A stretch of 36,629 nt of DNA from an uncultured Pseudomonadales bacterium (GCA_964352325.1 CAYGRQ010000001.1:1-36629); one strand, 5' to 3'. Positions 3,441 to 23,078 are shown, numbered from the stretch's first letter. The notes: a model not told the origin generated them from the sequence alone. Numbers and translations: made by a program.

Positions 3441-3696
3441 TTAATGATAAGGTGTATTTTACAATTAGATCTTTAATTTGCCTACCAAACCCAGATTTAT
3501 AAAACTTTTCCCGAAGAATGGCGTCTTTTTTGCAGAAATAATTTTCGGAATAAATTAACTCAAATGGAGCGTTTAGCTTAGTGAAAGAATTACTTCCATT
3601 GTTGTGTTCAACCAAGCGTGTCTCTGGATTTTTTGACGTACTACCAACATACACCTTTTCATTTTTCAAACTTTTTAGAAAATATATGTAAAACAT
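3418..3696 (-). CDS. GIY-YIG nuclease family protein (URI/YhbQ-like, 92 aa)
   Basis: MFYIYFLKS..EKVYVGSTSKNPETRLVEHNNG...REKFYKS matches the GIY...YxG...R..EH...E core. The last 8 codons (LRTRSSAG) and the TAG stop are supplied by the 5' part of the tRNA-Val gene (overlap 3418-3440). Confidence 0.8.
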   Translation of the reverse strand: MFYIYFLKSLKNEKVYVGSTSKNPETRLVEHNNGSNSFTKLNAPFELIYSENYFCKKDAILREKFYKSGFGRQIKDLIVKYTLSLRTRSSAG

Positions 3697-3705
3697 ATTT
3701 AATCT

Positions 3706-3763
3706 GCGCTCTAACCTCCGCCATAGGCGGATCAGCCTTTGGCTGAAACTGCGCTACGGGTCC
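3706..3763 (-). pseudogene. Degenerate duplicate of tRNA-Val positions 1-27, interrupted in the D-loop by a 30-nt insert
   Basis: The minus strand reads GGACCCGTAGCGCAGTT[TCAGCCAAAGGCTGA][TCCGCCTATGGCGGA]GGTTAGAGCGC. Outside the insert it matches the real tRNA 5' part at 26/28 positions. It has no anticodon or T arm and runs straight into the GIY-YIG start region. Confidence 0.8.
3717..3746. repeat. Two abutting 15-nt palindromes (6-bp stem, 3-nt loop each) inside the tRNA fragment
   Basis: TCCGCC-ATA-GGCGGA (3717-3731) is followed directly by TCAGCC-TTT-GGCTGA (3732-3746). Both share the pattern TC-NGCC-NNN-GGCN-GA. Confidence 0.85.
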
Positions 3764-3773
3764 TTTTGGGCTT

Positions 3774-3792
3774 GCCCGACGATTCGTCGGGC
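3774..3792. other. Perfect 8-bp stem / 3-nt loop hairpin in the divergent intergenic region
   Basis: GCCCGACG-ATT-CGTCGGGC. It lies inside the TTG-initiated 5' extension of the lepB ORF, which argues for a downstream lepB start. Function unknown. Confidence 0.5.
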
Positions 3793-3828
3793 TTGAATTA
3801 TTATACCAAGAGCCTTAAGCTTAAAGAT

Positions 3829-4395
3829 GTGGCTAGGATAGTGAAAAAGTTCTTGGGTCTGTTGTACGAAATGGTGGAGGTGTTCGTGGTTTCGGCCTCG
3901 ATTTTTGTGGTGGTTTATCTTTTTTTGATGCAGCCGCATCAGGTAAAGGGTAGTTCGATGTTTCCCACCTTTCACGACGGCGAGTATGTTCTGACCGACA
4001 AAGTGACTTTTCGGACCAGGGCACCAAAATGGGGTGACGTGATCGTTTTTAGAGCACCGGTGAATGAAAATTTTGATTTCATCAAGCGGGTCATCGCCGT
4101 TCCCGGTGACAGAATCATGGTTTCCGGAGGCAAAGTCTATGTCAATGGCCAACCCCTTGATGAGTTCTACCTCCCCCCTGAATACACAACCGCGGCCGGG
4201 CAGTTTTTAAGAGAGGGAACGGAATATACAATTCCAGGAGGCTCGGTTTTTGCCGTCGGTGATAATCGTGGCCATTCTTCGGATAGTCGCGACTGGGGGC
4301 CAGTCCCCTACCAAAACATTGTCGGGAAAGCGTTTTTCCGCTACTGGCCGGGAGATAAAGTGGGTTTGATCGTTAACCCGGTGGAAAATCAATAA
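3829..4395 (+). CDS. lepB: Signal peptidase I
   Basis: GSSMFPTF (catalytic Ser), FIKRVIAVPGDRI (catalytic Lys box) and GDNRGHSSDSR. The ORF track begins at a TTG at 3739, inside the tRNA fragment and hairpin. GTG 3829 (chosen here) or ATG 3871 are more plausible starts, and the choice remains uncertain. Confidence 0.88.
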   Translation: MARIVKKFLGLLYEMVEVFVVSASIFVVVYLFLMQPHQVKGSSMFPTFHDGEYVLTDKVTFRTRAPKWGDVIVFRAPVNENFDFIKRVIAVPGDRIMVSGGKVYVNGQPLDEFYLPPEYTTAAGQFLREGTEYTIPGGSVFAVGDNRGHSSDSRDWGPVPYQNIVGKAFFRYWPGDKVGLIVNPVENQ

Positions 4396-5342
4396 TCCTC
4401 GAATTCGTCTTTGGGGGAGTCGATCGGAAGAATTGGTTCGAAGGGATTATTGAAGGCCGGGGCGGCATTGGCGGCGGCGGTTTCGGGAATGGTTTCTTCA
4501 GCAACTTCATTGGTGACCTCACCAGTGGAGAGGGCGATACAAATCTTTTTTAGCTGCTGTTCGGTTTCTTCCGGTTTCCCACGAAGAACGATACTGATGG
4601 CGGTCTCAATGCGGGAGCGGCGCATTTTGACCTTGGCATTTTTGCCAATTGAAGTCTGAATCTGATTGCTTAGCTGATCAATCAAGTCATTAATCGACTT
4701 GTTGGCGACATCATCGATAGCAACTTTGGTTTTGCCCCCCATTTGTTTCTTGAAGCGGCGGGCCAGTTCCTCGGCGCGACGGACGGAGCCGCCTTCACGC
4801 AGGATAATCTTGTAGGCTTCGATCATGGCCTGAGTTTCGGGGATGGCGGACAGAGCCCGAGCGTGGCCTTCGCTAATGACACCAGAAATCAGACCGTCTT
4901 TTAAGGCGTCGGGGAGTTCCAAAAGACGAAGTGAGTTGCTGACATAGGAGGGACTTTTGCCGGTGCGGGTGGCGATATCGAGATTGGTCAGGCTGAACTC
5001 CCGCATCAAGCGGTCGAAGGAATTGGCCCGGTCGATCGCGTTGAGATCACTGCGCTGAACGTTTTCGACGATGGCCATCTCGAGCATCCCCTGGGGCGAA
5101 GTTTGGATGATTTTGACCGGAACGTGAATCAAACCGGCCAAACGGGCAGCGCGCCAACGGCGTTCACCGGCGATGATTTGGTAGCCGGCCGGAGTGTGGG
5201 CGATGACGAGAGGTTGAATAAGGCCGTGGGTTTTGATGGAGTCAACCAGCTCGGCGAGAGACTCGGGAGTGATGACACCCCGGGGTTGCAAAGGATTGGG
5301 CTGAAGTTGATCTATCGGGAGTTGTTCGATGACGTCGGCCAT
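4389..5342 (-). CDS. parB: ParB/Spo0J family partition protein
   Basis: LQPNPLQPRG, GLIQPLVI and IIAGERRWRAARLAGL (ParB N-terminal CTPase box), followed by an HTH region. The stop overlaps the convergent lepB stop by 7 nt. Confidence 0.9.
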   Translation of the reverse strand: MADVIEQLPIDQLQPNPLQPRGVITPESLAELVDSIKTHGLIQPLVIAHTPAGYQIIAGERRWRAARLAGLIHVPVKIIQTSPQGMLEMAIVENVQRSDLNAIDRANSFDRLMREFSLTNLDIATRTGKSPSYVSNSLRLLELPDALKDGLISGVISEGHARALSAIPETQAMIEAYKIILREGGSVRRAEELARRFKKQMGGKTKVAIDDVANKSINDLIDQLSNQIQTSIGKNAKVKMRRSRIETAISIVLRGKPEETEQQLKKICIALSTGEVTNEVAEETIPETAAANAAPAFNNPFEPILPIDSPKDEFEDY

Positions 5343-5597
5343 TTACTTTTGAGGCAGGACTTCGACGTAATTGGTACCTTGTTTGATTTTGAAGTTAACG
5401 GTGCCGTTAACGAGAGCGGAGAGGGTGAAATCGCGGCCGCGCTCGACGTTTTCCCCGGCGTGGAAGTTAGCGCCGCGCTGACGGACGATGATTTGGCCGG
5501 CCTTGATCGCCTGACCACCGTACATCTTGACGCCGAGGCGTTTGCCGGCTCGTTGCGCATGTTGTCTGGTGGCTCCTCCTGATTTAACGTGGGCCAT
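5343..5597 (-). CDS. rpmA: 50S ribosomal protein L27
   Basis: [29 protein letters not shown]...IIVRQRG..FHAG.NV is the canonical L27 sequence. There is no N-terminal pro-extension. Confidence 0.95.
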
Positions 5598-5604
5598 AAA
5601 ATTT

Positions 5605-6438
5605 CTATTTCTTTTCTAGGACGACGATTTCTCGTCTAACTTTCGCTTCCGGCTGGCTATACATCAAGCCTCGAGCAACGGTATTGTAGCCGATAAGCTT
5701 TGGATCGTCAATGACGGCGCTGGTTTTATATTGGCGACCTTGGTATTCAAAAACCGGAAAAATCATGGCGATGCGGCCACTGGTTTTTAGGAATTTAAAC
5801 CAATCCTTGAGGCAGCCGAGATAAAGTTTCATCAAACCCTTGGCCAGGTCAGGCAGGCGGTCGACGCGCGTCCCCGGCCGGCCCATGTATGATTCCGTAG
5901 CAATAAAATCAATTTCTTCTTTGAGGTGATCGGACAGAGCGGTGGCTTCGTAGGCCATGAGTTTCGAGCCGTAGCCAAAAAAATCGAGGTTTCGCCTGGC
6001 ACCAGCGGTCTGGACCGGATCCAGATCGTTACCGATGAGATTCATCTTCATCACCCCCGCTTCTATAAGAATGGTGCCCGAGCCGCAAAAAGGATCGAGA
6101 AGGGTCTGGCCTTCAGGGTCGTCGACGCCCACGGCCAGGTTGACGAGGATACGGGCAATTTTGGGAGGGAGCAGGCCTTTGTGACGATCGGAGTAGGGCT
6201 TAGTGCGATCGCGCTTGAACCAGGCTTTGGCGCTGTGGCGCCAGACCATTTTGCCGGTAGCGTCCGCGACCTCGACCAGGCCACCCAAACGATTGGCTAA
6301 ATAGTTCATTCGGGAAAGTCCGTCAAGATGAACTTGGTATTGATGATCCCCCGTTTTTTGCGGATTTTGACCGGAAACCTGGATTAGTTCCATGAGGGCC
6401 AGTTCTTCAGAAAAACCCAAGGTAAAAAGAAAGTCCAT
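5605..6438 (-). CDS. Class I SAM-dependent RNA methyltransferase (Trm11/UPF0020-like)
   Basis: Motif [17 protein letters not shown] is preceded by [13 protein letters not shown], typical of the Trm11/RlmL-type family. The expected (D/N)PPY motif IV position reads ATESYMG. Confidence 0.7.
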
Positions 6439-6441
6439 TGC

Positions 6442-6783
6442 CTATTTTAGTTTGATGCCGGTGACAGTCAGATGACTCTCGATTTGGCGATGGCCAGTGG
6501 AGCGGCGATAGCGGGATTTGGCGCGGAATTTTCGAATCTCAATTTTTTCGCCAGGGGCGGTTTTATCGAGAGACAGTTCAACTGAGGCCCCTTCCACATA
6601 AGGGGTACCGACCTTAACGTCGGCGGCGGTGGAAACGAGAAGAACAGCGTCTACTTTTACTTTTTCACCATCTTTGGCGTCAAGTTTTTCGGCTGTGATT
6701 TTGTCTCCTTCCTTGACCAGGTATTGCTTACCGGAAAGCTCGATGACAGCTAGAGTACTGGTAGGTATCTTTTTGGTTGCCAT
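6442..6783 (-). CDS. rplU: 50S ribosomal protein L21
   Basis: AVIELSGKQYLVKEGDKI ... RKFRAKSRYRRSTGHRQ is the L21 signature. Confidence 0.93.
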   Translation of the reverse strand: MATKKIPTSTLAVIELSGKQYLVKEGDKITAEKLDAKDGEKVKVDAVLLVSTAADVKVGTPYVEGASVELSLDKTAPGEKIEIRKFRAKSRYRRSTGHRQIESHLTVTGIKLK

Positions 6784-6795
6784 AGCAGGTGTCGA

Positions 6796-7836
6796 TTATA
6801 TCTGATGCGCGGGTGTTAATTCAAGCAGTCGGGCGCTCATACCCAAAAGGGCCATGAACGATAGGAGCGAGCTGCCGCCATAAGAAAAGAGCGGCAAGGT
6901 AATGCCGGTGACCGGTATAATACCCAGATTCATGCCGATATTGACGACCGTTTGAAAAAGAAAGATAGCGATGATACCCACCCCGAGGAGGCGGTGTTCC
7001 TGTTCTTTTAGCTTTTCGACGGTGGATAACAAGAGGGACAAGAGACTGAAATAGGCGATCAAGGTGAGACTGATGCCCAGAAGGCCGAATTCTTCAGCAA
7101 AGGAGGCAAAAATAAAATCGGTATGCCGCTCGGGCAGGAAATTGAGATGAGACTGGGTGCCGAGACGGACTCCCTTGCCAAAAATGCCGCCGGAGCCGAT
7201 GGCAATGACCGATTGAATGACGTTGTAGCCCCGGCCGCGGGGGTCGTGGTAGGGGTTAATAAATGACTCGAGCCGGTCGAGTTGATAACCCTTGAGAAAA
7301 TAAGGCGACAAGGGAACAAGCAGGAGAAGAAAGAGTAAAAAGATGATAATTTTTTTAGGCGAGAGACCGCTAAAGACAGCCATGAAAGTGGCTAAAGCGG
7401 TGAGAACGAGGGCACTGCCCAAATCCGGCTGGATTTTGACCAAGATCACCGGAATCAGGGCCATGACGATAAAAAGAAGCAGATTCTTGAGTTTATCGAG
7501 CTTGTGTTTAACTAAGAAACCGGCATAGGCCAAAATCAATAGCGGCTTGACGACTTCTGATGTCTGGATACCAAGAAACCACCTGGTGGTCCCTCGAACC
7601 GATGGGGCAAAAAAGAGGGTCAAAATCAACAAGAGGAGACAGAAGATATAGATGAAATTCGAGGCGCCAAAGGCGACAGTCAGGTCAAGTTTGTAAAAAA
7701 CAAAGGCAATCAGCAATCCTATCCCAAGAAACGAGAACTGGACCCAAAAAAGGTCGGGGACGGTACTCCAGATGGTGGTTAAGCCAAAACTAACGAGCAG
7801 ACCGACGGAAATAAGAAGCCTTAGTTTTTTATTCAC
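6796..7836 (-). CDS. rodA: SEDS-family peptidoglycan glycosyltransferase (RodA-like)
   Basis: A polytopic membrane protein with QPDLGSALV, NFLPERHTDFIFASFAEEFGLLG and GITLPLFSYGGSS motifs. The start overlaps the ileS stop by 4 nt. The rodA versus second-ftsW assignment rests on its position outside the dcw cluster. Confidence 0.8.
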   Translation of the reverse strand: MNKKLRLLISVGLLVSFGLTTIWSTVPDLFWVQFSFLGIGLLIAFVFYKLDLTVAFGASNFIYIFCLLLLILTLFFAPSVRGTTRWFLGIQTSEVVKPLLILAYAGFLVKHKLDKLKNLLLFIVMALIPVILVKIQPDLGSALVLTALATFMAVFSGLSPKKIIIFLLFLLLLVPLSPYFLKGYQLDRLESFINPYHDPRGRGYNVIQSVIAIGSGGIFGKGVRLGTQSHLNFLPERHTDFIFASFAEEFGLLGISLTLIAYFSLLSLLLSTVEKLKEQEHRLLGVGIIAIFLFQTVVNIGMNLGIIPVTGITLPLFSYGGSSLLSFMALLGMSARLLELTPAHQI

Positions 7837-10652
7837 TTACGAACAACGGTGAGGGTTGCCCCTTTGGTAATTTGTTTTACTAGTGTTTGTTGTTTGAGAT
7901 AGTCTTCGAATTCAGTTGGCCAGTCGGGAAGGATGACGTCGATAACTTCATCGAGACGACAGGCGGCCGCTTTCCTGGCTTCCTGAATGGCCCGGACCAG
8001 TTCCCTGGCCTGACCTTTTTTGGTGAGATGATCGGTCAGTTTGGTGTCGAAATCAACAGCCAGTTGTTCCCCAGCGACAAACCTTACCTCTTCGACATTG
8101 AGTTCGTCCTTGATCAGGGCCACCAGGTCGCTATCGGTGGCGATGTCTTCAAAATTACCTTTGACGGTCAGGGAAGCAAGCGGTTGTTTGACGGCGATGG
8201 TGTTGGTCTTGCGGAAGGCATGACCGGCTTCGACAATCCGACGCACTTGGGCCATGGCGGTGATTAAATTTTGGTCGATAACTTCAGGAGTAGCGACAGC
8301 CGGCCAGTCAGTCAGGTGGACCGATGCCTCTCCGGTCAGATGCCGATAGATATATTCGGAAATAAAAGGAATGATCGGTGAAACAGCCTGTGAGAAGACG
8401 GCAAAGACGGTCCGGAGGGTGGTGTAGGCCAGGTCACGGTCGGTTTTATCAACCGCAGTCGGCCCGACGCGATCGCGGGAGCGCCTGATATACCAAGTGG
8501 AGAGATCGGAAACAAATGGTCTGATTGTGGCAACGGCCTTTGGTATCTGATAGCCAGCGAGTTGTTTGTCGATTTCCAGAACGGTTTCGTTGAGGCGGGA
8601 AAGGATCCAGAGGTCGAGTTTGGTGGGGACTTGCGCCATTTCAATCTTTGGTTCCCAGTTATCAAGCGCGGCATAGTTAATGAAGAATTTATAGGAGTTC
8701 CAGAGTGTCATCAGAGTCGTTTTCAAGTGTTCCTGCCAATCGGTTTCAGAAATAATGATGTCCTGGCCAACCATGATCGGACTACCCATGAGGTAAAGAC
8801 GGAGAGAGTCGGCACCATATTTGACAATATAATCCTTCGGGTCGGGGTAATTGCCATAGTTCTTGCTCATTTTCCGACCGTCGTTGCCCATGATGACACC
8901 CTGGACGATGACGTTTTTGAAGCAGTTGGTTTTAAAAAGGGCGTTACTAATGACGTGCATGACATAAAACCAAGCCCGAAGTTGGCCGGTATACTCGGTA
9001 ATGAAGTCAGCCGGAAAATTAGCCAGAAATTCTTTTTCGTTTTCAAAGGGATAATGCCGCTGCCCATACGGCATCGAGGCGGCTTCGACCCAACTATCAA
9101 GAACTTCCGGGACACGATGGGCAACCCCGTCGCACTTGATACATTTAATGGTCACCTTGTCGATGTCCGGGCGGTGAAGATCGGTAATCTTTTGGCCCGA
9201 CCAGTCTTCCAAATCCTTGATTGAACTGGGGACAAAAATTTCACCACAGGAACATTCCCAAACGGGAATGGGGGCGCCCCAGTAACGGGTGCGGCTGATA
9301 CACCAATCGGGAGCAGAGTCGATGCCGAGTTCAAAACGGCCGTGCTTGAAGTGACCGGGAACCCAGTTAATGTTTTTGTTGGTCGCTTTCATCTGCTGCT
9401 TGAGTGAAGCGACGTCGAGATACCAAGCTTTTTGAACTTTGTAGATCAGAGGTGTCTCACAGCGATGACAGTGAGGATAGCTATGGATGATTGATTCCAG
9501 TTTGAAGACCAGGTTGTGGCTTTGGAGATCGGCCAGAATCAATTTATCGGCTGATTTGAAAAACTTGCCGGCGGCGACGGTAACTTTCGGGTCAAGTTTC
9601 CCTTCTTCGTCGACCGATTCGGCCATGGTGAGATCGTGTTCTTTGCCAAGGGCGGTGTCGTCCTCACCGAAACCGGGAGCAATGTGGACAATGCCGGTGC
9701 CGTCCTCCAGGGAGACGAAGTCGGCGGCGTAGACTTGGTGGTCCTGGGGCTTGGCCGCATAATAGGCATAGAGGGGCTCGTATGATAGACCGACCAATTT
9801 TTGACCCTTGAATCCGTCTTTTTCCTCGTATTTTTTGTCAGCAAAAACGGCTTTCACGCGGGACTGGGCCAAAATGTAGCGCTCCCCGGCCGACTCGACT
9901 TCGACATAATCCTCGTCGGGGGCGACACCAAGGGCGAAGTTGGTCGGCAGGGTCCAGGGGGTAGTCGTCCAGGCGAGCAAATATTTATCTTCACCTTTGA
10001 CTTTGAATTTGGCGAAGACAGAAGGGTCGGTGACATCTTTGTAGGAGTTGTCCATGGCGACCTCGAAGTTAGAAATCGGGGTGGAACAGCGAGGACAAAA
10101 GAGCGAGACGCGTTTGCCTTTGTAGATTAGTTTTTTGTCGTAGAGCTTATGGAAAACCCAGATGACCGACTCCATATAGTCGGTATCCATGGTCTTGTAG
10201 GCGTTTTTGAAATCAACCCAACGGCCGATGTGGTCGACGTACCACTCCCACTCAGCGCTGACGTTGCCAACATAATCCTTGCAGGCGGCGATGAATTTAT
10301 CGATGCCCAGGGTCTCGATTTCTTTCTTGCTGTTGATGCCCAGTTGTTTCTCGACTTTGTTTTCGGCGGGGAGACCGTGACAGTCCCAACCCCAAACGCG
10401 TCTGACGCGCTTGCCCTTCATGGTCTGGTAACGGGGAATGACGTCTTTGACGATACTACCCAAGAGGTGGCCATAATGGGGTAAACCGGTGATGAAGGGT
10501 GGGCCGTCGTAGAAACTGTAAGAGTCTTTTTCCGGTCGCATCTGGACTGACTTCTCAAAGATTTCGTTTTTCTTCCAGTACGCCAAAACCTCCTCCTCGA
10601 CCTGGTTAGGAACGTAATTGGTCTCGATTGGCTTTAGTTTGTGTTTGGCCAT
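7833..10652 (-). CDS. ileS: Isoleucine--tRNA ligase (type 2-like)
   Basis: PHYGH (HIGH) and KMSKNYGN (KMSKS) motifs, with an editing-domain region WTTTPWTLP. I use ATG 10652 (MAKHKLKPIETNYVPNQVEEEVL...) rather than the ORF-track start at 10730, which would overlap the upstream deacetylase gene. Confidence 0.93.
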   Translation of the reverse strand: MAKHKLKPIETNYVPNQVEEEVLAYWKKNEIFEKSVQMRPEKDSYSFYDGPPFITGLPHYGHLLGSIVKDVIPRYQTMKGKRVRRVWGWDCHGLPAENKVEKQLGINSKKEIETLGIDKFIAACKDYVGNVSAEWEWYVDHIGRWVDFKNAYKTMDTDYMESVIWVFHKLYDKKLIYKGKRVSLFCPRCSTPISNFEVAMDNSYKDVTDPSVFAKFKVKGEDKYLLAWTTTPWTLPTNFALGVAPDEDYVEVESAGERYILAQSRVKAVFADKKYEEKDGFKGQKLVGLSYEPLYAYYAAKPQDHQVYAADFVSLEDGTGIVHIAPGFGEDDTALGKEHDLTMAESVDEEGKLDPKVTVAAGKFFKSADKLILADLQSHNLVFKLESIIHSYPHCHRCETPLIYKVQKAWYLDVASLKQQMKATNKNINWVPGHFKHGRFELGIDSAPDWCISRTRYWGAPIPVWECSCGEIFVPSSIKDLEDWSGQKITDLHRPDIDKVTIKCIKCDGVAHRVPEVLDSWVEAASMPYGQRHYPFENEKEFLANFPADFITEYTGQLRAWFYVMHVISNALFKTNCFKNVIVQGVIMGNDGRKMSKNYGNYPDPKDYIVKYGADSLRLYLMGSPIMVGQDIIISETDWQEHLKTTLMTLWNSYKFFINYAALDNWEPKIEMAQVPTKLDLWILSRLNETVLEIDKQLAGYQIPKAVATIRPFVSDLSTWYIRRSRDRVGPTAVDKTDRDLAYTTLRTVFAVFSQAVSPIIPFISEYIYRHLTGEASVHLTDWPAVATPEVIDQNLITAMAQVRRIVEAGHAFRKTNTIAVKQPLASLTVKGNFEDIATDSDLVALIKDELNVEEVRFVAGEQLAVDFDTKLTDHLTKKGQARELVRAIQEARKAAACRLDEVIDVILPDWPTEFEDYLKQQTLVKQITKGATLTVVRK

Positions 10653-10671
10653 TTTATTCTTTTTTATAACA

Positions 10672-11418
10672 TTAGTCGGCCTTGATGTAGCGGAATTGTT
10701 CGTAGCGACGACCCTCTTTCTCTGGAGCAAAGTAATCGGCTGCTCCCTTGGCTTTTTCTTCGCTATATTGGGATTTGTGACTTGCGATGGCGTTTATTTT
10801 CTGATCGAAAAAATTGGTTATATCAAAATAAACTAGGTCAGGATCTCCCCAGAAATCAGCGAAAAGAAACTCTTTTACTATATGTGGCGACAATCCTTCT
10901 TCGATCTGTTTGGGGAAAAATAAATTGTCTCGAGAGTAAGGGTAGGCGGCGTCAACTGCTGATATGGCTGTATTTCGATGATCTCGATGATTTAAATAAA
11001 ACTCTCCAAAATCATCTTTGATAATTACTTTCTCTGGATTATGGGTGACGATTAGATCCGGCCTAAAAGTACGGATTTGCTTGACGATTTTTTCGATGTT
11101 ATCAAGATTATTTTCGATTTGACCGTCGCCTAAATTTAGATTGACGCTGTTTTTTGGAGCAAGACCCAAAATCTCTAAACCAGCTTCATCCTCGGTCTCT
11201 CGGATGTTTGCTAGATCGGACTCGGTATATTTATCTTGGCGTGAGCCTTTGTTTCCTTTGGTCGTTTTGACATGTAAGACCTCGATCCCTTCTTTGACCA
11301 GCCTAGCTATAAGTCCACCGGAATACATCTCCGCGTCGTCGGGATGAGCATAAACAAACATCACCTTTTTCTTACTGGAAAAAATTTCCGAGAATGAATC
11401 TTTTACCATGTTGTTCAT
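10672..11418 (-). CDS. PIG-L/LmbE family N-acetylglucosaminyl deacetylase
   Basis: VMFVYAHPDDAEMYSGG (the AHPDD zinc-binding motif) and downstream HRDHRN. Confidence 0.8.
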   Translation of the reverse strand: MNNMVKDSFSEIFSSKKKVMFVYAHPDDAEMYSGGLIARLVKEGIEVLHVKTTKGNKGSRQDKYTESDLANIRETEDEAGLEILGLAPKNSVNLNLGDGQIENNLDNIEKIVKQIRTFRPDLIVTHNPEKVIIKDDFGEFYLNHRDHRNTAISAVDAAYPYSRDNLFFPKQIEEGLSPHIVKEFLFADFWGDPDLVYFDITNFFDQKINAIASHKSQYSEEKAKGAADYFAPEKEGRRYEQFRYIKAD

Positions 11419-11444
11419 TTTACTATATTTATGAGCGTCGCTTT

Positions 11445-11469
11445 CCTGCAGGGTCTGACCCCGTAGGTG
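11445..11469 (+). repeat. REP-like 25-mer, left copy
   Basis: CCTGCAGGGTCTGACCCCGTAGGTG is identical to 12138-12162. It is an imperfect palindrome CCTGCAGGG-TCTGA-CCCCGTAGG (7 Watson-Crick pairs, 1 G.T, 1 mismatch). It ends 1 nt before the Y1-transposase ORF. Confidence 0.9.
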
Positions 11470-11470
11470 A

Positions 11471-12136
11471 TTGGGGTGCTATGCTGGAGTAGAAGTGCCT
11501 GGCAAAAACATAATCAAGATTTACGATGAAAACGGTTATTATCATATTTACAATCGTGGAGTGGAGAAACGGAATATCTTTCTTGATCAGCAGGACCATT
11601 CGGTATTTCTTTCGTATCTGATGATATATTTGTCACCCGTTGATCAAAATCAAAAAATTTCTCCTTCGAAGAGGCTTAAAAACTATTTTGGAATTGTTGA
11701 CCTGCTTTGTTATTGCCTAATGCCCAATCACTTTCATCTACTGATAAAGCAACATGTTTCTACGGGGATTGCTGATTTTGTCCAATCAGTCTCGACGAAG
11801 TATGCGATGTATTTTAATAAGAAATATCAAAGGTCCGGACATCTCTTTCAGGGAGCCTATCGGGCGGTAACGATTGATTCTGAAGCCCAATTGCTCCAGT
11901 TGTCTCGTTATATTCATCGTAACCCCGACCCTGCAAGGTCTGACCCTGCAGGTTTGCTGGAGTATCGATATTCGAGCCTACCGATTTATCTAGGGAAATT
12001 TAATCAGTCGTGGGTTAGAAACCAGGAGATATCGTGCTTATTTTCTAAAGGTGACGTTCTAAATTCGTACAAATCATTTGTGCTCGAGTCCGTGGATCTC
12101 TCGGACATGAGTTCTCTGTTGATTGATTACGATTAG
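11471..12136 (+). CDS. REP-associated / IS200-like Y1 (HUH) tyrosine transposase homolog
   Basis: YYHIYNRGVEKRNIF, the HUH motif in CLMPNHFHLLIKQ, and a catalytic-Tyr region LSRYIHRNP...YRYSS. The start is uncertain: TTG 11471 in the track, or GTG 11495 as an alternative. Confidence 0.8.
   Translation: MGCYAGVEVPGKNIIKIYDENGYYHIYNRGVEKRNIFLDQQDHSVFLSYLMIYLSPVDQNQKISPSKRLKNYFGIVDLLCYCLMPNHFHLLIKQHVSTGIADFVQSVSTKYAMYFNKKYQRSGHLFQGAYRAVTIDSEAQLLQLSRYIHRNPDPARSDPAGLLEYRYSSLPIYLGKFNQSWVRNQEISCLFSKGDVLNSYKSFVLESVDLSDMSSLLIDYD
11930..11952 (+). repeat. REP-like palindrome embedded in frame in the transposase CDS
   Basis: CCTGCAAGG-TCTGA-CCCTGCAGG pairs at 8 of 9 positions. It encodes PARSDPAG directly after YIHRNPD. 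Confidence 0.75.
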
Positions 12137-12137
12137 G

Positions 12138-12162
12138 CCTGCAGGGTCTGACCCCGTAGGTG
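12138..12162 (+). repeat. REP-like 25-mer, right copy
   Basis: Identical to 11445-11469. It fills the gap between the transposase stop (12134-12136) and the convergent ftsZ stop (12163-12165), leaving only nt 12137 before it. Confidence 0.9.
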
Positions 12163-13424: not shown

Positions 13425-14690
13425 TCAGGGCAGAAACGATTTGACGAACTCAAACGCCTTGTCCAGAAAGCCCTTGAGTGGCAGTTTTTTTGTCAGTTGA
13501 TCGAAAACGGATTTTTTGCTGCCGCCATATTCATTCTTTTTGCCGGCGCCATACAAGATAAGACCGACGGTGGCGGCGTAAGCGGGCGAACCGATTTCTT
13601 CGACGAGCCCGGAAAGACCGGCGGGGCTACCAACACGAGTTGGCAGTTGGAGAACGCGTTTACAGGCCGAAGCGGCGTCAACGGTCATCGAACCGCCGCC
13701 GCAGAGAACGATGCCGGCTGGGGCTTGACCGGCATAACCGGATTTTTTGATCGCTGTCCCAACCATGGTAAAAATTTCATTGAGACGAGGTCGAATAATG
13801 CCGTCGACAATGGTTTTGCGGCTGATGGTTTTGGTTTCTTCCTTCAGGCCCAAGCGGTTTAGATTGACTTCATCGGTTTTCTCGGCTGTTCCTTCCGGTG
13901 CGCTACTGAGATAATGTTTAATTTTTTCGGCGGACTCGAGACTAACCATCAGACCGATAGCGAGATCGTCAGTGACCTTTTTGGCACCGACAGGAATAAC
14001 AGTTGAGTAGGCACAAGCGCCTTCGATATAAATGGAAAGACTGGTCGTACCCCCACCGATATCAACCAGGACAACTCCCAACTCCTTTTCAGTCTCTGTC
14101 AAGACAGAGTAACTGCCGGCTAAACCGGTATAGACCATGCCGCTGACGTCGATACCGATCTCAGTGACGCACTTGGCCATGTTCTTCATGGCGACCGAAG
14201 AACAGGTGATCAGATGAGCGTCGGTCTCCAAACGAACGCCGGCCATGCCGATGGGATCTTTGATCCCCCGTTGGGAATCGACAATATATTCACGAGGCAG
14301 AACGTGAAGAATCTCGCGGCTGTTGGGGAGTGAAACAGCCCGAGCGGCCTCGACAACGCGATAGACATCCTCCTCCCCGATTTCCCCTTCGGGTTGGGTA
14401 ATAGCAACGACGCCCTTACTGTTTTGGGACTGAATATGTTCACCGGAAATAGAAACATAGGCGTTGTTGATCGAGAAACCGGTCATTCTTTCGGCCGCTT
14501 CGACGCAGTCGGTGATGGCGGAGACGGCCTCGTCAATGTCGACGATCTGACCCTTCCTGACGCCCCGGCTCGGAGTAGTGGCGACACCAACGACATTAAT
14601 CTTGTCAGAATCGCTACTCTCTACGGTAATAAGACAACTGATTTTGCTACTGCCAACGTCAATGGCGTTCATGGAGGTTGTTTTGGCCAT
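13425..14690 (-). CDS. ftsA: Cell division protein FtsA
   Basis: Actin-like ATPase motifs (AIDVGSSKISCLI, VLVDIGGGTTSLSI, VLCGGGS) and a C-terminal amphipathic tail KGFLDKAFEFVKSFLP. Confidence 0.93.
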   Translation of the reverse strand: MAKTTSMNAIDVGSSKISCLITVESSDSDKINVVGVATTPSRGVRKGQIVDIDEAVSAITDCVEAAERMTGFSINNAYVSISGEHIQSQNSKGVVAITQPEGEIGEEDVYRVVEAARAVSLPNSREILHVLPREYIVDSQRGIKDPIGMAGVRLETDAHLITCSSVAMKNMAKCVTEIGIDVSGMVYTGLAGSYSVLTETEKELGVVLVDIGGGTTSLSIYIEGACAYSTVIPVGAKKVTDDLAIGLMVSLESAEKIKHYLSSAPEGTAEKTDEVNLNRLGLKEETKTISRKTIVDGIIRPRLNEIFTMVGTAIKKSGYAGQAPAGIVLCGGGSMTVDAASACKRVLQLPTRVGSPAGLSGLVEEIGSPAYAATVGLILYGAGKKNEYGGSKKSVFDQLTKKLPLKGFLDKAFEFVKSFLP

Positions 14691-14692
14691 TA

Positions 14693-18549: not shown

Positions 18550-18554
18550 GATCG

Positions 18555-18953
18555 CTAGAGCTTTCCGCCAAAGGCGAATTGGCCTTTGGCCAAGGCTGTT
18601 AACAGATAGGGTAGAAAAACAAGCAGGCCGGTGATGACCGCCATGGCGGCAGTCGTCAGGACCATGCCGGCGGAAACATCCTTGGCGACTCTGGCTAGCT
18701 CATGAAATTTTTCGGTATGGAGGTCGACTACCGACTCAATGCTGGTATTGATCATCTCGGTGATAAAAACCAGACCGATGATGAAAACGATAACTGACCA
18801 CTCGGCCGAAGTGAGGTTGAAATAAAAGCCGGCGCTGATGGCGATGATGGCCGCAATTAAATGAACGCGAAAGTTGGGTTGGGTTTTGATGGTATAGCTG
18901 ACGCCGTCGAGGGCGTGCTTAAAGGAGATAGTATGCCGCTGGTTCGGTGACAC
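18555..18953 (-). CDS. dgkA: DgkA-family lipid kinase (diacylglycerol/undecaprenol kinase)
   Basis: 132 aa, three TM segments, SFKHALDGVSYTIKTQPNFRVH and EMINTSIESVVD. GTG start. Confidence 0.85.
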   Translation of the reverse strand: MSPNQRHTISFKHALDGVSYTIKTQPNFRVHLIAAIIAISAGFYFNLTSAEWSVIVFIIGLVFITEMINTSIESVVDLHTEKFHELARVAKDVSAGMVLTTAAMAVITGLLVFLPYLLTALAKGQFAFGGKL

Positions 18954-18975
18954 AGTTTGATTTTAACCTGTTTGA

Positions 18976-20673
18976 CTAGCGGGCGCCACCAAGGAGCAAT
19001 AGTTGGTTAGCGATGGCAAACCAGAGCGGAGCGGCCGTTTCCGATCCCCAAGGGGATGTTTGAGGTTCGGTCAGGCTGACCAGCATGGTGTATTGAGGTT
19101 GCCGGGCCGGAAAAAAACCGATAAAACTGGCAATCGTTTTTTCGGGATCATAATGGCCGGCGATCGGAATCTGGGCGGTACCGGTCTTACCGGCGATTTC
19201 GATATTTTTCGGCTTGGCCCATTTGGCTTCCCCCCGGTCAACCGCGGCAATCATCATATCGCGAATTTGGATGGCCGTTTCCGGTTCGATCACCTTTTTT
19301 TTTGTAGCTTGAGGAAGGCTAACTTCTTTGTCGCCACTTTTTATTTTTTCGACAATTGTCGGCTGAACCAGGACGCCCTGGTTGGCAACGGCGTTGACGG
19401 CCGCGAGCATCTGGATGGGGGTGACGGCGATTCCCTGACCGAAAGAATTGGTGGCTAAATCAATATCTTTCAGGTCGGCTTGAAGTTTTTTGGAACCGGC
19501 GGCCTCCTCCTGAAGTTCGATGCCGGTTAACTGGCCGATACCGAAATCAGATAAGTAACGGGCGAATTTTTCTTTACCTAAGCGGCGGGCAACAAAAACC
19601 ATACCGATATTGTTGGAGTGAACGATGACGTCGGTAAGGGTGCTGTTCGGGTAATATTTTTCATCCCAGGTTTTGATGGTGTATTGACCGATGTGGATAG
19701 GACCGGCGCAAATGTCGCAGATGGTAGTCGGGGTAACCACTTTTTCATTGAGGGCGGCGGCCATGACGAGGACTTTGAAGATTGAACCCGGTTCAAAAAG
19801 GTCGGCGACGCTGGGGTTTTGGTAGGTAGATTTGTCGAAATCGGCAAAATGACCGGGGTCATAGTTGGGATAGGCGGCCATGGCTAGGATTTTGCCGGTA
19901 GTGCTCTCCATGATAATGACATTACCGGCTTTGGCCTGATAGCGGTCCAGGCCCTCGCGCAGAAGTGATTCGACCAGAAACTGGGTTTGTTTATTGATAG
20001 TCGTGATGATTGACCGGCCGGTGATGTTGGCAAGCAGGTTATAACGGCCGATGAGGATTGGGTTGCCGAAAGCATCTTTCTCGCTTCTGATCTTTCCTTC
20101 CCGGCCGCGCATTTGGCGATCAAAGTAGCCCTCCAAACCGAAATAACCCTGGGGTTCCCCGGCAAGGTCGCTACCAACGAAGCCGAGGACTTGGGCGGCC
20201 AGACTGGCTTCGGGATAGAAACGGGTGAATTCGTCCTCGAAACCCAGGCCTTTGAGGTTTAGGGCCTCAATTTTTTTCTTTTGATCGGGGGTTAGGTAGT
20301 GCTTCAATGAGACCCAGTTGCTGGTAAGGTTAAAGCGGTCGAGAAGCTGGGAGCGAGTTTGATCGAGCACGCCCGCGGTAGTGGCGAGAACGGGCGCGAG
20401 AAGATCGATAACTTCGGCTTTGGACTTCTCCAGTTGAGGTTTGTAGACAAAAAGGTGATAGAGGTTCTGACTGCCCGCTAAAAGCTGGCCCGAAGAATCC
20501 AAAATATCGCCTCGCTGGCTAGCCAAAATGACGACGTCCTGGTGCTGGCGGTCGGCGCGCTCGGCTAGTCCCGGTCCCCGAATGATCTGCCAATAAAAAA
20601 GGCGGCTGACGATGACAAGAGCAAAAAAAGGAATCAGGAAAAAAATAACCCGCAAGCGAAAATGGGTAATCAT
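18976..20673 (-). CDS. ftsI: Class B penicillin-binding protein (FtsI/PBP2-type transpeptidase)
   Basis: An N-terminal TM anchor, SxxK (GSIFK), SxN (HSNNIG) and KTGT motifs. Confidence 0.92.
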   Translation of the reverse strand: MITHFRLRVIFFLIPFFALVIVSRLFYWQIIRGPGLAERADRQHQDVVILASQRGDILDSSGQLLAGSQNLYHLFVYKPQLEKSKAEVIDLLAPVLATTAGVLDQTRSQLLDRFNLTSNWVSLKHYLTPDQKKKIEALNLKGLGFEDEFTRFYPEASLAAQVLGFVGSDLAGEPQGYFGLEGYFDRQMRGREGKIRSEKDAFGNPILIGRYNLLANITGRSIITTINKQTQFLVESLLREGLDRYQAKAGNVIIMESTTGKILAMAAYPNYDPGHFADFDKSTYQNPSVADLFEPGSIFKVLVMAAALNEKVVTPTTICDICAGPIHIGQYTIKTWDEKYYPNSTLTDVIVHSNNIGMVFVARRLGKEKFARYLSDFGIGQLTGIELQEEAAGSKKLQADLKDIDLATNSFGQGIAVTPIQMLAAVNAVANQGVLVQPTIVEKIKSGDKEVSLPQATKKKVIEPETAIQIRDMMIAAVDRGEAKWAKPKNIEIAGKTGTAQIPIAGHYDPEKTIASFIGFFPARQPQYTMLVSLTEPQTSPWGSETAAPLWFAIANQLLLLGGAR

Positions 20674-20675
20674 CG

Positions 20676-21023
20676 TTATCTAACTGCCGCCAACGCCTCG
20701 TCTCCCGAAATTATTAAATTGGTCTTCACCCTGACGAAACCCAGGTCGGAAGCCGCAGATTGAATATTGCTCAAGTTGGCTTTTTTGCCAATTTCGACCG
20801 TCAGGATTTGGTTTTCTTTGTTTAATTTTCCTGTTTCGGATAGTACGTAGTCGAGAACAACACCTTGGGTGGCCAGGGCGTTAGTACCAATGAGGTTAGC
20901 GAGGGCCAAAACAGCCACCAAGCCGAAGACCAGACCGACGAGGTTGTTGACTAAGCTAAATTTTTTGAGCCAGACGGAGTTTGGCACTTCTGACTTTTGG
21001 ATTAATTTGTAATTCTTTTTCAT
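20676..21023 (-). CDS. ftsL: FtsL-like small bitopic membrane protein (by position)
   Basis: 115 aa with a single TM segment (LVGLVFGLVAVLALANLIG), between rsmH and ftsI. It overlaps the rsmH 3' end by 68 nt, and I see no alternative start downstream. Confidence 0.45.
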   Translation of the reverse strand: MKKNYKLIQKSEVPNSVWLKKFSLVNNLVGLVFGLVAVLALANLIGTNALATQGVVLDYVLSETGKLNKENQILTVEIGKKANLSNIQSAASDLGFVRVKTNLIISGDEALAAVR

Positions 21024-21870
21024 TTGGTTTTAGTGGTTTAACGTTAATAACGCGGAGGATGCTTGTCTTTTTCTTTTCTTTGATGAAGCGCTTGACGAGT
21101 CGGTCTTCGCCGGAGTGGAAACTGATTACCCCCAAGATGCCGCCTTGGGCGAGTAAATTCGGCGTCGCGGCGAGCATGTCCCGAAGGGCTTCCCGTTCGA
21201 GATTGACGGCCATACGCAAAGCCATGAAAGTCTTGGTGGCGGGGTGAATTTTTTTGGCCGTCGGCCGCTTTGCCTGACTCACGATTTCGGCCAGTTCACT
21301 TGTGGTTGTGACTGGAGCATTTTTTCTGGCCCGAGCGATAGCCCGAGCGATTATTTTGGCTTGGTATTCATCGGCCAAAAGGAACAACTCTGCCAATTCT
21401 CTTTCAGAAAGGGCATTGACCAGGTCGGCGGCGGACAGACCAAGGCGTTGATCGAGGCGCATATCGAGCGGGCCCTCCAGGTTGAAACTGAAGCCTCTTG
21501 GCGCCTCTGCTAACTGATATTGGGAAGTCCCCAGATCGGCAAGAATGGCCTTGAAGAGGGGCAGGTTGAGTTGGGCCGCTACTTCTCCCGCTTTGGCAAA
21601 ATTGGTGTGAACGATGAGCCAGGTGAAGTCGGCCGGTGGTGCAATGGCCATTTCCGGGCGGACAATGATGGGCGTGTATTTGCCGGAGAGGAAGTTGGTG
21701 GCCCGACTGATTGCCTGCTCATCGACATCAAAGCTGACGACCCGGGCGCCGGCATCAAGGGCTTCCTGGGTGTGTCCCCCGTCACCAAGGGTGAGATCTA
21801 GGAACAGATCCCCGGGCTGGAGGTGAAAAAGGTCCTTTATTTGACCGGCAAAGGCGGGTAGATGTCTCAT
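20956..21870 (-). CDS. rsmH: 16S rRNA (cytosine1402-N4)-methyltransferase
   Basis: DLTLGDGGHT, ADLGTSQYQL, ISFHSGEDRLVK and C-terminal NPKVRSAKLRLAQK. ATG 21870 forms an ATGA overlap with the mraZ stop. Confidence 0.92.
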   Translation of the reverse strand: MRHLPAFAGQIKDLFHLQPGDLFLDLTLGDGGHTQEALDAGARVVSFDVDEQAISRATNFLSGKYTPIIVRPEMAIAPPADFTWLIVHTNFAKAGEVAAQLNLPLFKAILADLGTSQYQLAEAPRGFSFNLEGPLDMRLDQRLGLSAADLVNALSERELAELFLLADEYQAKIIARAIARARKNAPVTTTSELAEIVSQAKRPTAKKIHPATKTFMALRMAVNLEREALRDMLAATPNLLAQGGILGVISFHSGEDRLVKRFIKEKKKTSILRVINVKPLKPNEKELQINPKVRSAKLRLAQKI

Positions 21871-22298
21871 ATGTTTAAATCTTTTAGTCCCGATTCCCAA
21901 TCGGGATTTTCCTGCGTTACTAAGTTAAGGTGCTGGTGATAGCGGTCACGATCCCAGATTTCAATTCTGGTTAGGGCGCCGGCGATCACCACTTGTTTTT
22001 TTAGTGAAGCGCTTTCCTTTAAGTAGTCCGGGATTAAGGTCCTCCCCTGTGAGTCGAGAACCAGATCCACGGCTGATTGAACCAAGACCCTGGTAAATTG
22101 ACGGCCGGTCCGGTTCGTCAGGGGTAGGGACGCCAGCTTGCTGCAGAGCTCTTGCCAATATGAGTTGGGGAAAAGAAATAGGCAGCCATCCAGCCCGATG
22201 GTGATGACGCCACCAGATGTTAGTTTTTCGCGGAATACCGCCGGAATCGCCAACCTCCCCTTGGCTTCGAGGTTGTGATAATGGCGAGAGATAAACAT
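21867..22298 (-). CDS. mraZ: Transcriptional regulator MraZ
   Basis: MFISRHYHNLEAKGRLAIPAVFREKL, with the second SpoVT/AbrB-like half DSQGRTLIPDYL. Confidence 0.93.
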   Translation of the reverse strand: MFISRHYHNLEAKGRLAIPAVFREKLTSGGVITIGLDGCLFLFPNSYWQELCSKLASLPLTNRTGRQFTRVLVQSAVDLVLDSQGRTLIPDYLKESASLKKQVVIAGALTRIEIWDRDRYHQHLNLVTQENPDWESGLKDLNI

Positions 22299-22330
22299 AG
22301 TGCATAGGACAGGTTTGGTAACTAGTTACT

Positions 22331-22361
22331 ATTATAATGGTAATTCACCACTTGTCACCAC
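22331..22361 (-). promoter_or_regulatory. Candidate mraZ/dcw promoter with tandem GTGGTGA boxes
   Basis: The minus strand reads GTGGTGAcaaGTGGTGAattaccatTATAAT. The two 7-mers are exactly 10 bp apart, and the upstream one contains a -35-like GTGACA 16 nt upstream of TATAAT. A 12-bp palindrome GTAACTAGTTAC follows the -10. Confidence 0.45.
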
Positions 22362-22377
22362 CCCCCAGTATCGTGAA

Positions 22378-22479
22378 AAGAAACTGCCCTGTCAAGGGGT
22401 AACCCGAGGCTAAAAAGGAGTTTATTTGATGAGGACGATGGGGCCGAGAAGGTAGAGCTGGGCCGTTTCGGCTTCCCCT
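22378..22479 (+). repeat. 102-bp direct repeat, copy A1 (non-coding relic of the lipoprotein gene 3' end)
   Basis: By my base-by-base comparison it is identical at 102 of 102 positions to 23079-23180. It contains the last 58 nt of the lipoprotein CDS plus 44 nt downstream, but here it is cut off from any ORF by an in-frame TAA in the adjacent B1 repeat. Confidence 0.9.
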
Positions 22480-22483
22480 CCCG

Positions 22484-22537
22484 ACTTACCCAATTAGTAC
22501 GGGAAAACGATTACTCGTGGTCAATTTACATGGGATA
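22484..22537 (+). repeat. 54-bp direct repeat, copy B1
   Basis: ACTTACCCAATTAGTACGGGAAAACGATTACTCGTGGTCAATTTACATGGGATA matches 22980-23033 at 53/54 positions (one A/G difference). Confidence 0.88.
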
Positions 22538-22548
22538 CGTCCTTCTTT

Positions 22549-22588
22549 GTCATCCCGACCAAGCGTACTCGCGAGTGGAGGGATCTTC
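22549..22588. repeat. 40-bp inverted repeat, left arm
   Basis: GTCATCCCGACCAAGCGTACTCGCGAGTGGAGGGATCTTC is the reverse complement of 22924-22963 at 39/40 positions. It contains the internal palindrome ACTCGCGAGT and ATCCC...GGGAT pairing. Confidence 0.88.
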
Positions 22589-22618
22589 CTAGACTGCATA
22601 GCCTACAATTAACATTAG

Positions 22619-22918
22619 ATGATTCGAAGTCAGAGATACTTCTTCGTATATATCTTAAGTAATTTCAAACGAAACGTCCTTTATACAGGCATCACCAGCA
22701 ACTTGCTCCGTCGTGTTTGGGAACATAAGGAGGGGGTTGTGGAAGGATTTACAAATGATTATCAAGTTCACGACCTCCTCTACTTTGAAACATACGATGA
22801 TCCTCAAACAGCTATCGCCAGAGAAAAACAAATTAAGAAATGGTCCAGAAGAAAGAAAAATGTGCTCATCGCAAAACAAAATCCAACACTAAAGGATCTT
22901 TATCCAACCCTTGTTTAG
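22619..22918 (+). CDS. GIY-YIG nuclease family protein (URI/YhbQ-like, 99 aa)
   Basis: YFFVYILSNFKRNVLYTGITSNLLRRVWEHKEG...YFETYDDPQTAIAREKQIKKWSRRKK is the canonical GIY-YIG core (GIY / YxG / R..EH / E). It is one of the few plus-strand genes and the only one in the right-hand 24 kb. Confidence 0.85.
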   Translation: MIRSQRYFFVYILSNFKRNVLYTGITSNLLRRVWEHKEGVVEGFTNDYQVHDLLYFETYDDPQTAIAREKQIKKWSRRKKNVLIAKQNPTLKDLYPTLV

Positions 22919-22923
22919 ACCCC

Positions 22924-22963
22924 GAAGATCCCTCCACTCGCGAGTACGCTCGGTCGGGATGAC
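22924..22963. repeat. 40-bp inverted repeat, right arm
   Basis: GAAGATCCCTCCACTCGCGAGTACGCTCGGTCGGGATGAC starts 5 nt after the GIY-YIG stop. Confidence 0.88.
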
Positions 22964-22979
22964 ATGGTCTTTTTCCCCA

Positions 22980-23033
22980 ACTTACCCAATTAGTACGGGG
23001 AAACGATTACTCGTGGTCAATTTACATGGGATA
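22980..23033 (+). repeat. 54-bp direct repeat, copy B2
   Basis: 53/54 identical to B1 (22484-22537). Confidence 0.88.
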
Positions 23034-23078
23034 TATCAATTACCTAGTTTTCAGTGTTGGTAGTTTGGGTAAGTCGGG

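Follow-up and report, generated by a model that had tools for sequence, protein, structure and literature searches.

Three small nuclease genes between repeats in a groundwater bacterial genome: probably unrelated modules, each with its own DNA hairpin

Do small nuclease genes that interrupt housekeeping gene order between direct repeats enter a chromosome by one common route? This question is raised by a stretch of 36,629 nucleotides from an uncultured Pseudomonadales bacterium (GCA_964352325.1 CAYGRQ010000001.1:1-36629; in the following "the window", meaning the whole stretch of DNA analysed), in which two GIY-YIG nuclease genes (GIY1 and GIY2) and a gene for a Y1 (HUH) transposase homologue are each framed by repeated sequence. 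An initial annotation had proposed that such GIY-YIG genes are selfish cassettes inserting by a break-and-copy route which leaves tens of bp of duplicated target. According to the comparisons presented here, the small nucleases of the window instead belong to three unrelated modules, each accompanied by a DNA hairpin of its own and without a common insertion scar, a reading to which we assign a probability of roughly 0.7. The initial observation is largely right and mobility of both GIY-YIG cassettes is supported, whereas the unifying mechanism is without support. What the sequence comparisons show directly are the gene identities, the repeats, the empty sites, the split into clades and the transfer between hosts; nuclease activities and insertion chemistry are inferred. 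The fall of a common long-duplication scar spares others from relying on it, and the window supplies population-level before/after alleles for two kinds of tiny nuclease cassette. Two of the three modules represent published systems, namely Ssn and the REP-associated tyrosine transposases (RAYT) with their repetitive extragenic palindromes (REPs). For the third, a tRNA-linked GIY-YIG clade, no description was located in the literature searched (queries on GIY-YIG with tRNA, REP, COG2827 and Patescibacteria, plus the hairpin sequences).

The window corresponds to contig C1:1-36629 of the genome under study (G000; 682 kb in 89 contigs, 49% GC, 94% complete). Proteins identical to those of the window were found on contigs of Hainich groundwater wells, and the relatives are bacteria with small genomes, the source labels on homologous proteins reading Candidatus Shapirobacteria, Levybacteria and similar. 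Comparison material comprised congeners (G001-G004), the genome G005, a genome of another genus (G017) and genomes of three other genera (G016, G029 and G040), with L numbers designating the contigs or loci compared.

The identities of the three genes, as initially assigned, are borne out by Pfam matches. GIY1 (3418-3696, minus strand, 92 aa) matches PF01541 at E=7e-16 and is neighboured by ygjP, tRNA-Val and lepB, the HUH gene (11471-12136, plus strand, 221 aa) matches PF01797 (Y1_Tnp) at E=1e-12 and has PIG-L and ftsZ as neighbours, and GIY2 (22619-22918, plus strand, 99 aa) matches PF01541 at E=3e-15, with no other Pfam match, in the vicinity of mraZ, a gene encoding 274 aa (g274) and hisS. 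An exact look-up of the PIG-L protein matched no record, and an Rfam scan of the window gave a tRNA as sole match, with none within 22300-23200. The two GIY-YIG proteins are diverged, as had been noticed before, sharing 34-35% identity. In a tree of small GIY-YIG proteins (n=54), they belong to two separate clades, the tRNA-linked clade (clade A) being split from the Ssn side with 100/99 support.

The proposal of one common insertion scar was put to a census of flanks. Shuffled 300-nt flanks yield repeats of at most 13 nt by chance, while exact flank repeats of at least 20 nt occur at only 6 of 53 GIY-YIG loci (2/25 on the Ssn side and 4/28 on the tRNA side), which is not what a single insertion route duplicating tens of bp of target predicts. 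Together with a DUF559-like gene elsewhere in the genome, discussed below, the census thus indicates that long direct repeats are neither general nor specific to GIY-YIG genes. The cassette character of both genes, on the other hand, holds, as each shows presence/absence among congeners and within one groundwater population. Likewise, the repeats themselves were only partly misread: those of 102 nt and 58 nt (initially 54 nt, at 98%) and the 25-mer are present, whereas the 28 nt attributed to tRNA-Val proved to be interrupted. Three kinds of features add to this list, the 39-nt inverted hairpins of GIY2, 14-nt terminal inverted repeats and a third, degenerate 25-mer in the open reading frame (ORF) of the HUH gene.

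GIY2 probably is a member of the Ssn clade, a placement based on catalytic spacing, tree position and hairpin layout. Its immediate surroundings comprise the following features.

22550..22588, plus strand: left Ssn-type hairpin (SRM-like, G·A-mismatch variant), from repeat search, fold and covariation
22619..22918, plus strand: GIY-YIG no. 2 (GIY2), 99 aa, Ssn-like clade member, from Pfam, tree and alignment
22924..22962, minus strand: right Ssn-type hairpin, inverted copy with 1 mismatch, from repeat search

The reference enzyme, SsnA of Neisseria meningitidis, is a single-domain GIY-YIG protein of 94 aa which binds an oriented hairpin (CGTCAT-stem-loop-stem-ATC) exclusively in single-stranded DNA, its cut lying a few bases upstream; ssn genes are mostly hairpin-flanked (NTS-ssnA-NTS), a layout that the authors describe as insertion-sequence-like and for which they propose domestication (Chenal et al., Nat Commun 2025, PMC11893778). 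Like Ssn proteins, GIY2 falls into the class of single-domain GIY-YIG enzymes of about 95-100 aa with matching Tyr/Tyr/Glu spacing, as the alignment shows invariant Y11, Y22 and E69 residues whose spacing equals that of Y6, Y17 and E64 of SsnA. Also like ssn genes, it is hugged by inverted, oriented hairpin repeats, here of 39 nt, starting with GTCAT and ending with ATC, with more copies genome-wide. Its clade has 100/96 support, and GTCAT...ATGAC inverted hairpin flanks are found in 14 of the 16 clade genes, none of which (0/16) lies near a tRNA. Moreover, GIY2 is 49-51% identical to the product of a G002 gene that bears near-canonical NTS flanks (GTCATCCTCGCGAAAGCGGGGATC). The hairpin family, defined by the 23-nt core CATYCCGASC-GNA-GTSGAGGRAT, numbers 27 copies in the 682 kb, compared to 0 for a reversed-pattern control, and all 27 copies show co-variation at two stem positions. 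GIY2 hairpins and the published SRM have the architecture of GTCAT, stem, loop, stem and ATC in common. By homology to SsnA, GIY2 would recognise its hairpin in single-stranded DNA and cleave a few bases ahead of it. Differences to the published Ssn systems concern the hairpin, which in the case of GIY2 contains a tandem G·A mismatch plus a bulge, and the host, which lives in groundwater and has a genome of about 0.7 Mb. In a crude test, 17 of the 27 hairpins of G000 were located within ORFs of at least 120 aa; for the NTS of Neisseria, 2% have been reported to lie inside genes (PMC11893778).

Going beyond the published work on Ssn, comparison of loci provides evidence for movement of the cassette between sites and hosts, in agreement with the mobility that had been suggested for GIY2. 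Near-identical copies occur at unrelated loci of other hosts: proteins 90-91% identical to GIY2 are encoded at three sites, one following khpA, one following a LytR gene and one preceding an EamA gene, always in the same hairpin frame, and a 74% homologue has a PIN gene on one side and a GH39 gene on the other. For the copies at the khpA and LytR sites (L068 and L069), the neighbours are only 59-75% identical to their G000 orthologues, and DNA similarity among the cassettes ends at the outer edge of the hairpins. Hence, the mobile unit extends from hairpin to hairpin over about 414 bp and has moved between sites and hosts. The Ssn family thereby gains comparative evidence for a moving hairpin-gene-hairpin unit. 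Long flank repeats were absent from the three closest GIY2 homologues tested (L068, L069 and L070) as well as from the second Ssn gene of G000. For other Ssn insertions, comparison with empty sites (G003 and G002 against G000) gave no clean boundaries, the regions being rearranged or too diverged. Two further observations relate to Ssn cassettes. The second one of G000 (C1:40245-40619, outside the window) is contained in a 2.56-kb tract, C1:38200-40760, with its end at a REP (40768). Identity of this tract to G001 is 100%, compared to 80-90% in the background, and the tract has the appearance of a recent import by recombination between species. In addition, two genomes (L068; L076 in G002:C2) have Ssn cassettes of different sub-lineages in the spacer following khpA, where G000 has none; this spacer may be a recurrent landing site.

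In the window, the Ssn cassette is nested in a larger block with terminal inverted repeats and a long duplication around it, again without counterpart in the Ssn paper.

22378..22479, no strand: left copy of the 102-bp target duplication, made up of 44 spacer nt and the final 58 nt of the 274-aa gene, from repeat search; single copy at the empty sites of G001, G003 and L163
22480..23078, no strand: inserted 599-bp block with 14-nt terminal inverted repeats, CCCGACTTACCCAA ... TTGGGTAAGTCGGG, from empty-site comparison
22480..22537, plus strand: inner 58-nt direct repeat, left copy, opening with the left terminal inverted repeat, from repeat search
22976..23078, plus strand: 103-nt unit of the right 58-nt copy and a 45-nt tail closing with the terminal inverted repeat, from repeat search
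23079..23180, no strand: right copy of the 102-bp target duplication, still joined to the 274-aa gene, from repeat search and empty sites

From left to right, the block consists of a 58-nt repeat, 12 nt, hairpin, a 30-nt leader, the gene, 5 nt, hairpin, 13 nt, the 58-nt copy and a 45-nt tail. The empty sites of G001 and G003 show the 274-aa gene, 130 nt and mraZ, with one homologue of the 102-bp sequence, and in strain L163, which has an identical MraZ protein at 97.5% DNA identity, mraZ is followed by a single identical 102-bp sequence and then the 274-aa gene. As the empty sites carry one copy, the 599-bp block has been inserted with duplication of 102 bp. The 102-bp repeat is therefore a genuine target duplication, and it is the only repeat of the window for which this is proven. 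Nine independently assembled groundwater contigs reach the region: six have both exact 102-nt copies, two have both with one base changed and one starts inside the block. Strain L063 bears the same single-base variant in both copies, L064 a variant in one copy only.

While the 102-nt copies are 100% identical, the 58-nt pair (22480-22537 and 22976-23033) differs by 2 mismatches, indicating that the inner duplication came first and moved together with the block. For this inner repeat, also listed initially as a flanking duplication, a target origin is not supported. Neither the 58-nt repeat nor the 103-nt unit was found elsewhere in the genome or by exact 24-mer scans of the genome and metagenome contig collections, and the 103-nt unit region folds no better than shuffles. 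The 14-nt terminal inverted repeats are perfect and have no other copy in the genome. Since the GIY2 homologues tested and the second Ssn gene of G000 are without long flank repeats, the 102-bp scar belongs to the event of the composite block and not to Ssn cassettes generally. In this lineage, the Ssn cassette would thus have arrived inside the 599-bp block, the entry of which duplicated 102 bp of target, presumably through breaks on the two strands about 100 nt apart, or through illegitimate insertion linked to replication, with subsequent fill-in. An event that spares the end of the upstream gene as well as the region ahead of mraZ would be favoured by selection.

Insertions of the DDE type are characterized by target duplications of 2-15 bp. 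The block resembles DDE insertion sequences and miniature inverted-repeat transposable elements in its perfect terminal inverted repeats surrounded by a direct target duplication, but deviates from them in the 102-bp length of that duplication, in encoding no transposase and in block ends without further copies in the genome or the collections searched. Any mechanism proposed must account for this precisely defined target duplication. The spacer between the 274-aa gene and mraZ (window 22299-23122; L012-L014) also carries unrelated inserts in other genomes, non-coding and of about 0.25 kb in G004, of about 1.1 kb with an ORF in G005 and of about 0.65 kb with an ORF in G002, and represents an insertion hot spot ahead of the division and cell-wall cluster. 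Adjoining the right 102-bp copy, the 274-aa gene shows a hot spot of single-nucleotide polymorphisms (23189-23260) with 17-23 differences per 200 nt (L060, L063 and L064) between strains otherwise more than 99% identical.

The second GIY-YIG cassette, that of GIY1, has a different architecture, as it is built around tRNA-Val.

3364..3440, minus strand: functional tRNA-Val(CAC), 'allele 1' (ARAGORN; Rfam RF00005, 62.6 bits), identical to the tRNA of cassette-free L156
3418..3696, minus strand: GIY-YIG no. 1 (GIY1), 92 aa, tRNA-linked clade (PF01541, E=7e-16; tree), last codons overlapping the tRNA 5' end
3443..3765, minus strand: 323-bp cassette with the 13-nt direct repeat GCTACGGGTCCTT at 3430-3442 and 3753-3765, absent from L156, L157, G002 and G004
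3698..3765, minus strand: pseudo 5' part of tRNA-Val, from sequence, fold and allele comparison; same layout in G040, G016 and G029

The GIY-YIG domain spans residues 1-71 of the 92, without a second domain, and the catalytic Y, Y, G, R, H and E are all conserved. The 28 nt initially interpreted as a duplicated tRNA-Val 5' end in fact consist of 11 + 17 nt (26/28 identical) separated by a 30-nt double hairpin (3710-3739; fold of -11.6 kcal/mol, z = -4.6), and comparing filled and empty alleles reduces the repeat bracketing the 323-bp insertion to 13 nt (16/17 when extended). Empty alleles are provided by the population contigs L156 (99.4% identical) and L157 (98.4%), both cassette-free and encoding an identical YgjP protein, and by G002 and G004, where ygjP, tRNA-Val and lepB occur without the cassette. 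In the pseudo-tRNA fragment, nucleotides 1-17 equal the L157 allele, and the D-arm 3' strand following the hairpin is of the allele-1 type. Being chimeric between two tRNA-Val alleles, the upstream fragment is no plain local duplication; from its sequence, it looks like a junction of two tRNA alleles at the D-loop. This gives a hint of a break near the D-loop and a concrete substrate for cleavage assays.

Linkage to tRNA recurs within the clade. Of the six free-standing GIY-YIG genes of G000, four adjoin a same-strand tRNA (Val, Asn, Ser and Gln; chance P = 2.5e-6), and among relatives 18/29 loci of the tRNA-linked clade lie at most 150 nt from a same-strand tRNA. The closest GIY1 homologues (48-53% identity; G040, G016 and G029) are found directly upstream of tRNA-Val and after a tRNA-Val 5' fragment with a long D-loop hairpin. 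The cassette can be described as a tRNA 5' fragment with D-loop hairpin, a nuclease gene and an intact tRNA, lodged in the 5' part of tRNA-Val and probably gained or lost very recently, the most likely route being a break near the D-loop and recombination within conserved tRNA sequence.

Free-standing homing endonuclease genes of the GIY-YIG type are known from T-even phages as the Seg family, with SegB residing in the tRNA gene cluster of T4. GIY1 is similar in being intron-free, in adjoining a tRNA, in its presence/absence between relatives and in showing signs of flanking tRNA exchange. In contrast to Seg enzymes, however, it comprises only 92 aa without a separate DNA-binding domain, is chromosomal and bacterial, and is placed inside the tRNA transcription unit, with a leftover tRNA 5' fragment bearing a D-loop hairpin. 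Several other observations were made around these genes. At C46:4213-4635, a GIY-YIG gene is located between two identical 35-nt pseudo 5' halves of tRNA-Asn, in both of which the D-arm is replaced by the hairpin TCCGCCAGCTGGCGGA, with the real tRNA-Asn directly downstream. At C5:13809-13897, ARAGORN calls a tRNA-Ser with ACU anticodon, followed by hairpins and a GIY-YIG gene (13966-14211). Upstream of tRNA-Val in the window, the 21-nt hairpin GCCCGACGATTCGTCGGGCTT (3776-3796) varies between strains: L156 and G002 have it, L157 does not.

The HUH gene, finally, belongs to yet another type of module.

11445..11469, plus strand: REP hairpin upstream of the RAYT gene, from repeat search and fold
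11471..12136, plus strand: RAYT-like Y1 (HUH) transposase, 221 aa (PF01797, E=1e-12), at the same site in G003 and G002
11930..11954, plus strand: REP copy in frame within the RAYT ORF, from repeat search, cross-species comparison and fold
12138..12162, plus strand: REP hairpin following the RAYT gene, with the same sequence as the upstream copy, from repeat search

Both Y1 motifs are legible in the protein, HUH as NHFHLL (HFH) and the catalytic Tyr within YIHRNP. The 25-mer flanking the gene is an imperfect palindrome of a REP family present at 12 sites of G000, and a third, degenerate REP stands in frame directly past the YIHRNP motif. At the same position, between ftsZ and PIG-L, orthologues are encoded by G003 (71% aa identity) and by G002 (56%), G005 lacks the gene, its two neighbouring genes being 18 nt apart, and all ten population contigs shown (10/10) carry it. 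A shortened RAYT in strain L173 was not trusted, as it stems from a 3x-coverage assembly with scattered indels. With the same position in three congeners, the gene is old at its site. G003, G002 and G017 share the arrangement of three REPs, one before, one within and one after the gene, with REP sequences that are species-specific at all three positions. As the REP family is dispersed and co-varies with the gene across species, the 25-mers are cognate REPs and no target duplication, which is the alternative of an independent repeat family that the initial annotation had itself named. The protein would, by analogy, belong to those Y1/HUH enzymes for which binding and cleavage of single-stranded REP hairpins are known, and is probably kept vertically between ftsZ and PIG-L with the 25-mers as its REPs.

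RAYT (TnpA-REP) enzymes with REP or REPIN repeats are a described system (Nunvar 2010, PMC2817692; Ton-Hoang 2012, PMC3333891). Common features are the Y1 HUH domain with HUH and Tyr motifs, short palindromes that flank the gene and recur elsewhere in the genome, one stable chromosomal site across species and co-evolution of repeat and gene. Different from such systems are the direct orientation of the flanking REPs, the third REP within the ORF in four species, the low score for the REP transposase family given below and the presence of four Y1 paralogues in G000. The in-frame copy, shared by four species (orthologues L039, L041 and G017:C5:53523) and co-varying with the flanking REPs, is a minor peculiarity that studies of REP and RAYT could test.

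Several points weigh against the reading of three modules, each with its own hairpin. The published SRM pattern, HGTCWYN(0-2)YYVSBRHN(0-5)WNVSBRGN(0-2)RNCYNB, misses the GIY2 hairpins. It has 7 matches in the genome, 2 of them canonical NTS-like and none among the 27 G·A-variant hairpins, which thus stand outside even this degenerate pattern. Furthermore, association of the strict 23-nt hairpin with Ssn-type genes is moderate (41 genomes, Fisher P = 0.03), because the hairpin variant differs genome by genome. The 102-bp duplication is a single event that does not fix its mechanism, and the empty alleles could in principle be revertants formed by recombination between the repeats instead of being ancestral. 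As to GIY1, the allele comparison is compatible with either tRNA allele being the resident or the imported one. The HUH protein matches the NCBIfam model REP_Tyr_transpos NF047646 at E=9e-10 with 38.6 bits, below the cut-off of 80, and the REPs flanking its gene are in direct, not inverted, orientation; for both reasons, it is labelled RAYT-like and not RAYT.

A more far-reaching view, which appears rather unlikely, is that the two GIY-YIG modules are active selfish elements, each with a hairpin-recognising nuclease of its own as the driving force, the tRNA cassette homing and the Ssn cassettes still transposing. If so, a cut near the D-arm would allow the tRNA-linked cassette to home into tRNA genes, with the conserved tRNA serving as homology arms across species, which would explain the chimeric fragment. 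Ssn cassettes, described only as possibly domesticated, would then enter by a single-strand or replication-linked route able to duplicate about 100 bp. To our knowledge, a target duplication of about 100 bp is a scar of no prokaryotic transposition chemistry.

The opposite view, that the GIY-YIG genes are domesticated host genes, with Ssn controlling transformation or recombination and the tRNA-linked enzyme having a function at the tRNA locus, seems improbable to us. Hairpins would then be regulatory or recognition sites, deletions would explain presence/absence and passive homologous recombination the spread. Domestication is argued for in the Ssn paper, which demonstrates an effect on transformation (PMC11893778). 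In addition, the insertion is fixed in all population contigs carrying GIY2, the tract with the second Ssn gene, identical between two species, points to ordinary recombination, and precise deletion would be feasible via the 13-nt or the 102-nt direct repeat. However, with empty sites in congeners at both loci (G001 and G003 at mraZ, G002 and G004 at tRNA-Val), insertion is the simpler explanation. Further points against domestication are Ssn genes of 90-91% identity at four unrelated loci while core proteins are at 59-75% in the two hosts tested, and conserved DNA stopping exactly at the outer edge of the hairpins.

Even less probable, and largely refuted by the census, is the initial proposal that small GIY-YIG genes are one kind of selfish cassette inserting by break-and-copy with tens of bp duplicated, and that the HUH gene follows the same theme. 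It can draw on both GIY-YIG genes being insertions with empty sites, on the perfect 102-bp target duplication at one of them, on tRNA-derived sequence at both sides of the tRNA cassette and on flank repeats of 29-37 nt in some relatives. Against this stand not only the 6/53 loci with long flank repeats but also the different clades and architectures of the two genes, the lack of flank repeats at the three closest GIY2 homologues tested, the mere 13 nt bracketing the GIY1 cassette, the co-variation of the HUH 25-mers, as REPs, with their gene across species and the 69-nt flank repeats of the DUF559 gene, which are element-borne and not derived from the target. The last alternative, long perfect repeats as an assembly artefact of a fragmented metagenome-assembled genome, can practically be dismissed, since, despite many exact 55-nt repeats at 100-N gaps in the genome and several contigs breaking within the 102-bp repeat, the two-copy structure is seen again, at the same spacing, in independent assemblies of contigs from different wells and replicates, L063 has its variant in both 102-bp copies and L064 in one, and the region is without N gaps.

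Outside the window, three sets of repeats deserve mention. At C5:2603-3121, 69-nt direct repeats (95.6% identical) frame a gene for a DUF559-like nuclease of 119 aa. The insertion separates two convergent genes which are direct neighbours in three congeners, and as the repeats are absent at these empty sites, they are element-borne and no target duplication, a case that rules against long flanking repeats as a general insertion scar in the genome. Scaffolding has left exact 55-nt repeats, 155 nt apart, around 100-N gaps of many G000 contigs (e.g. C2:14625/14780), which unwary readers might take for target duplications. At C37:1476-2058, a hicA/hicB-like pair is located between 39-nt direct repeats with 94.9% identity.

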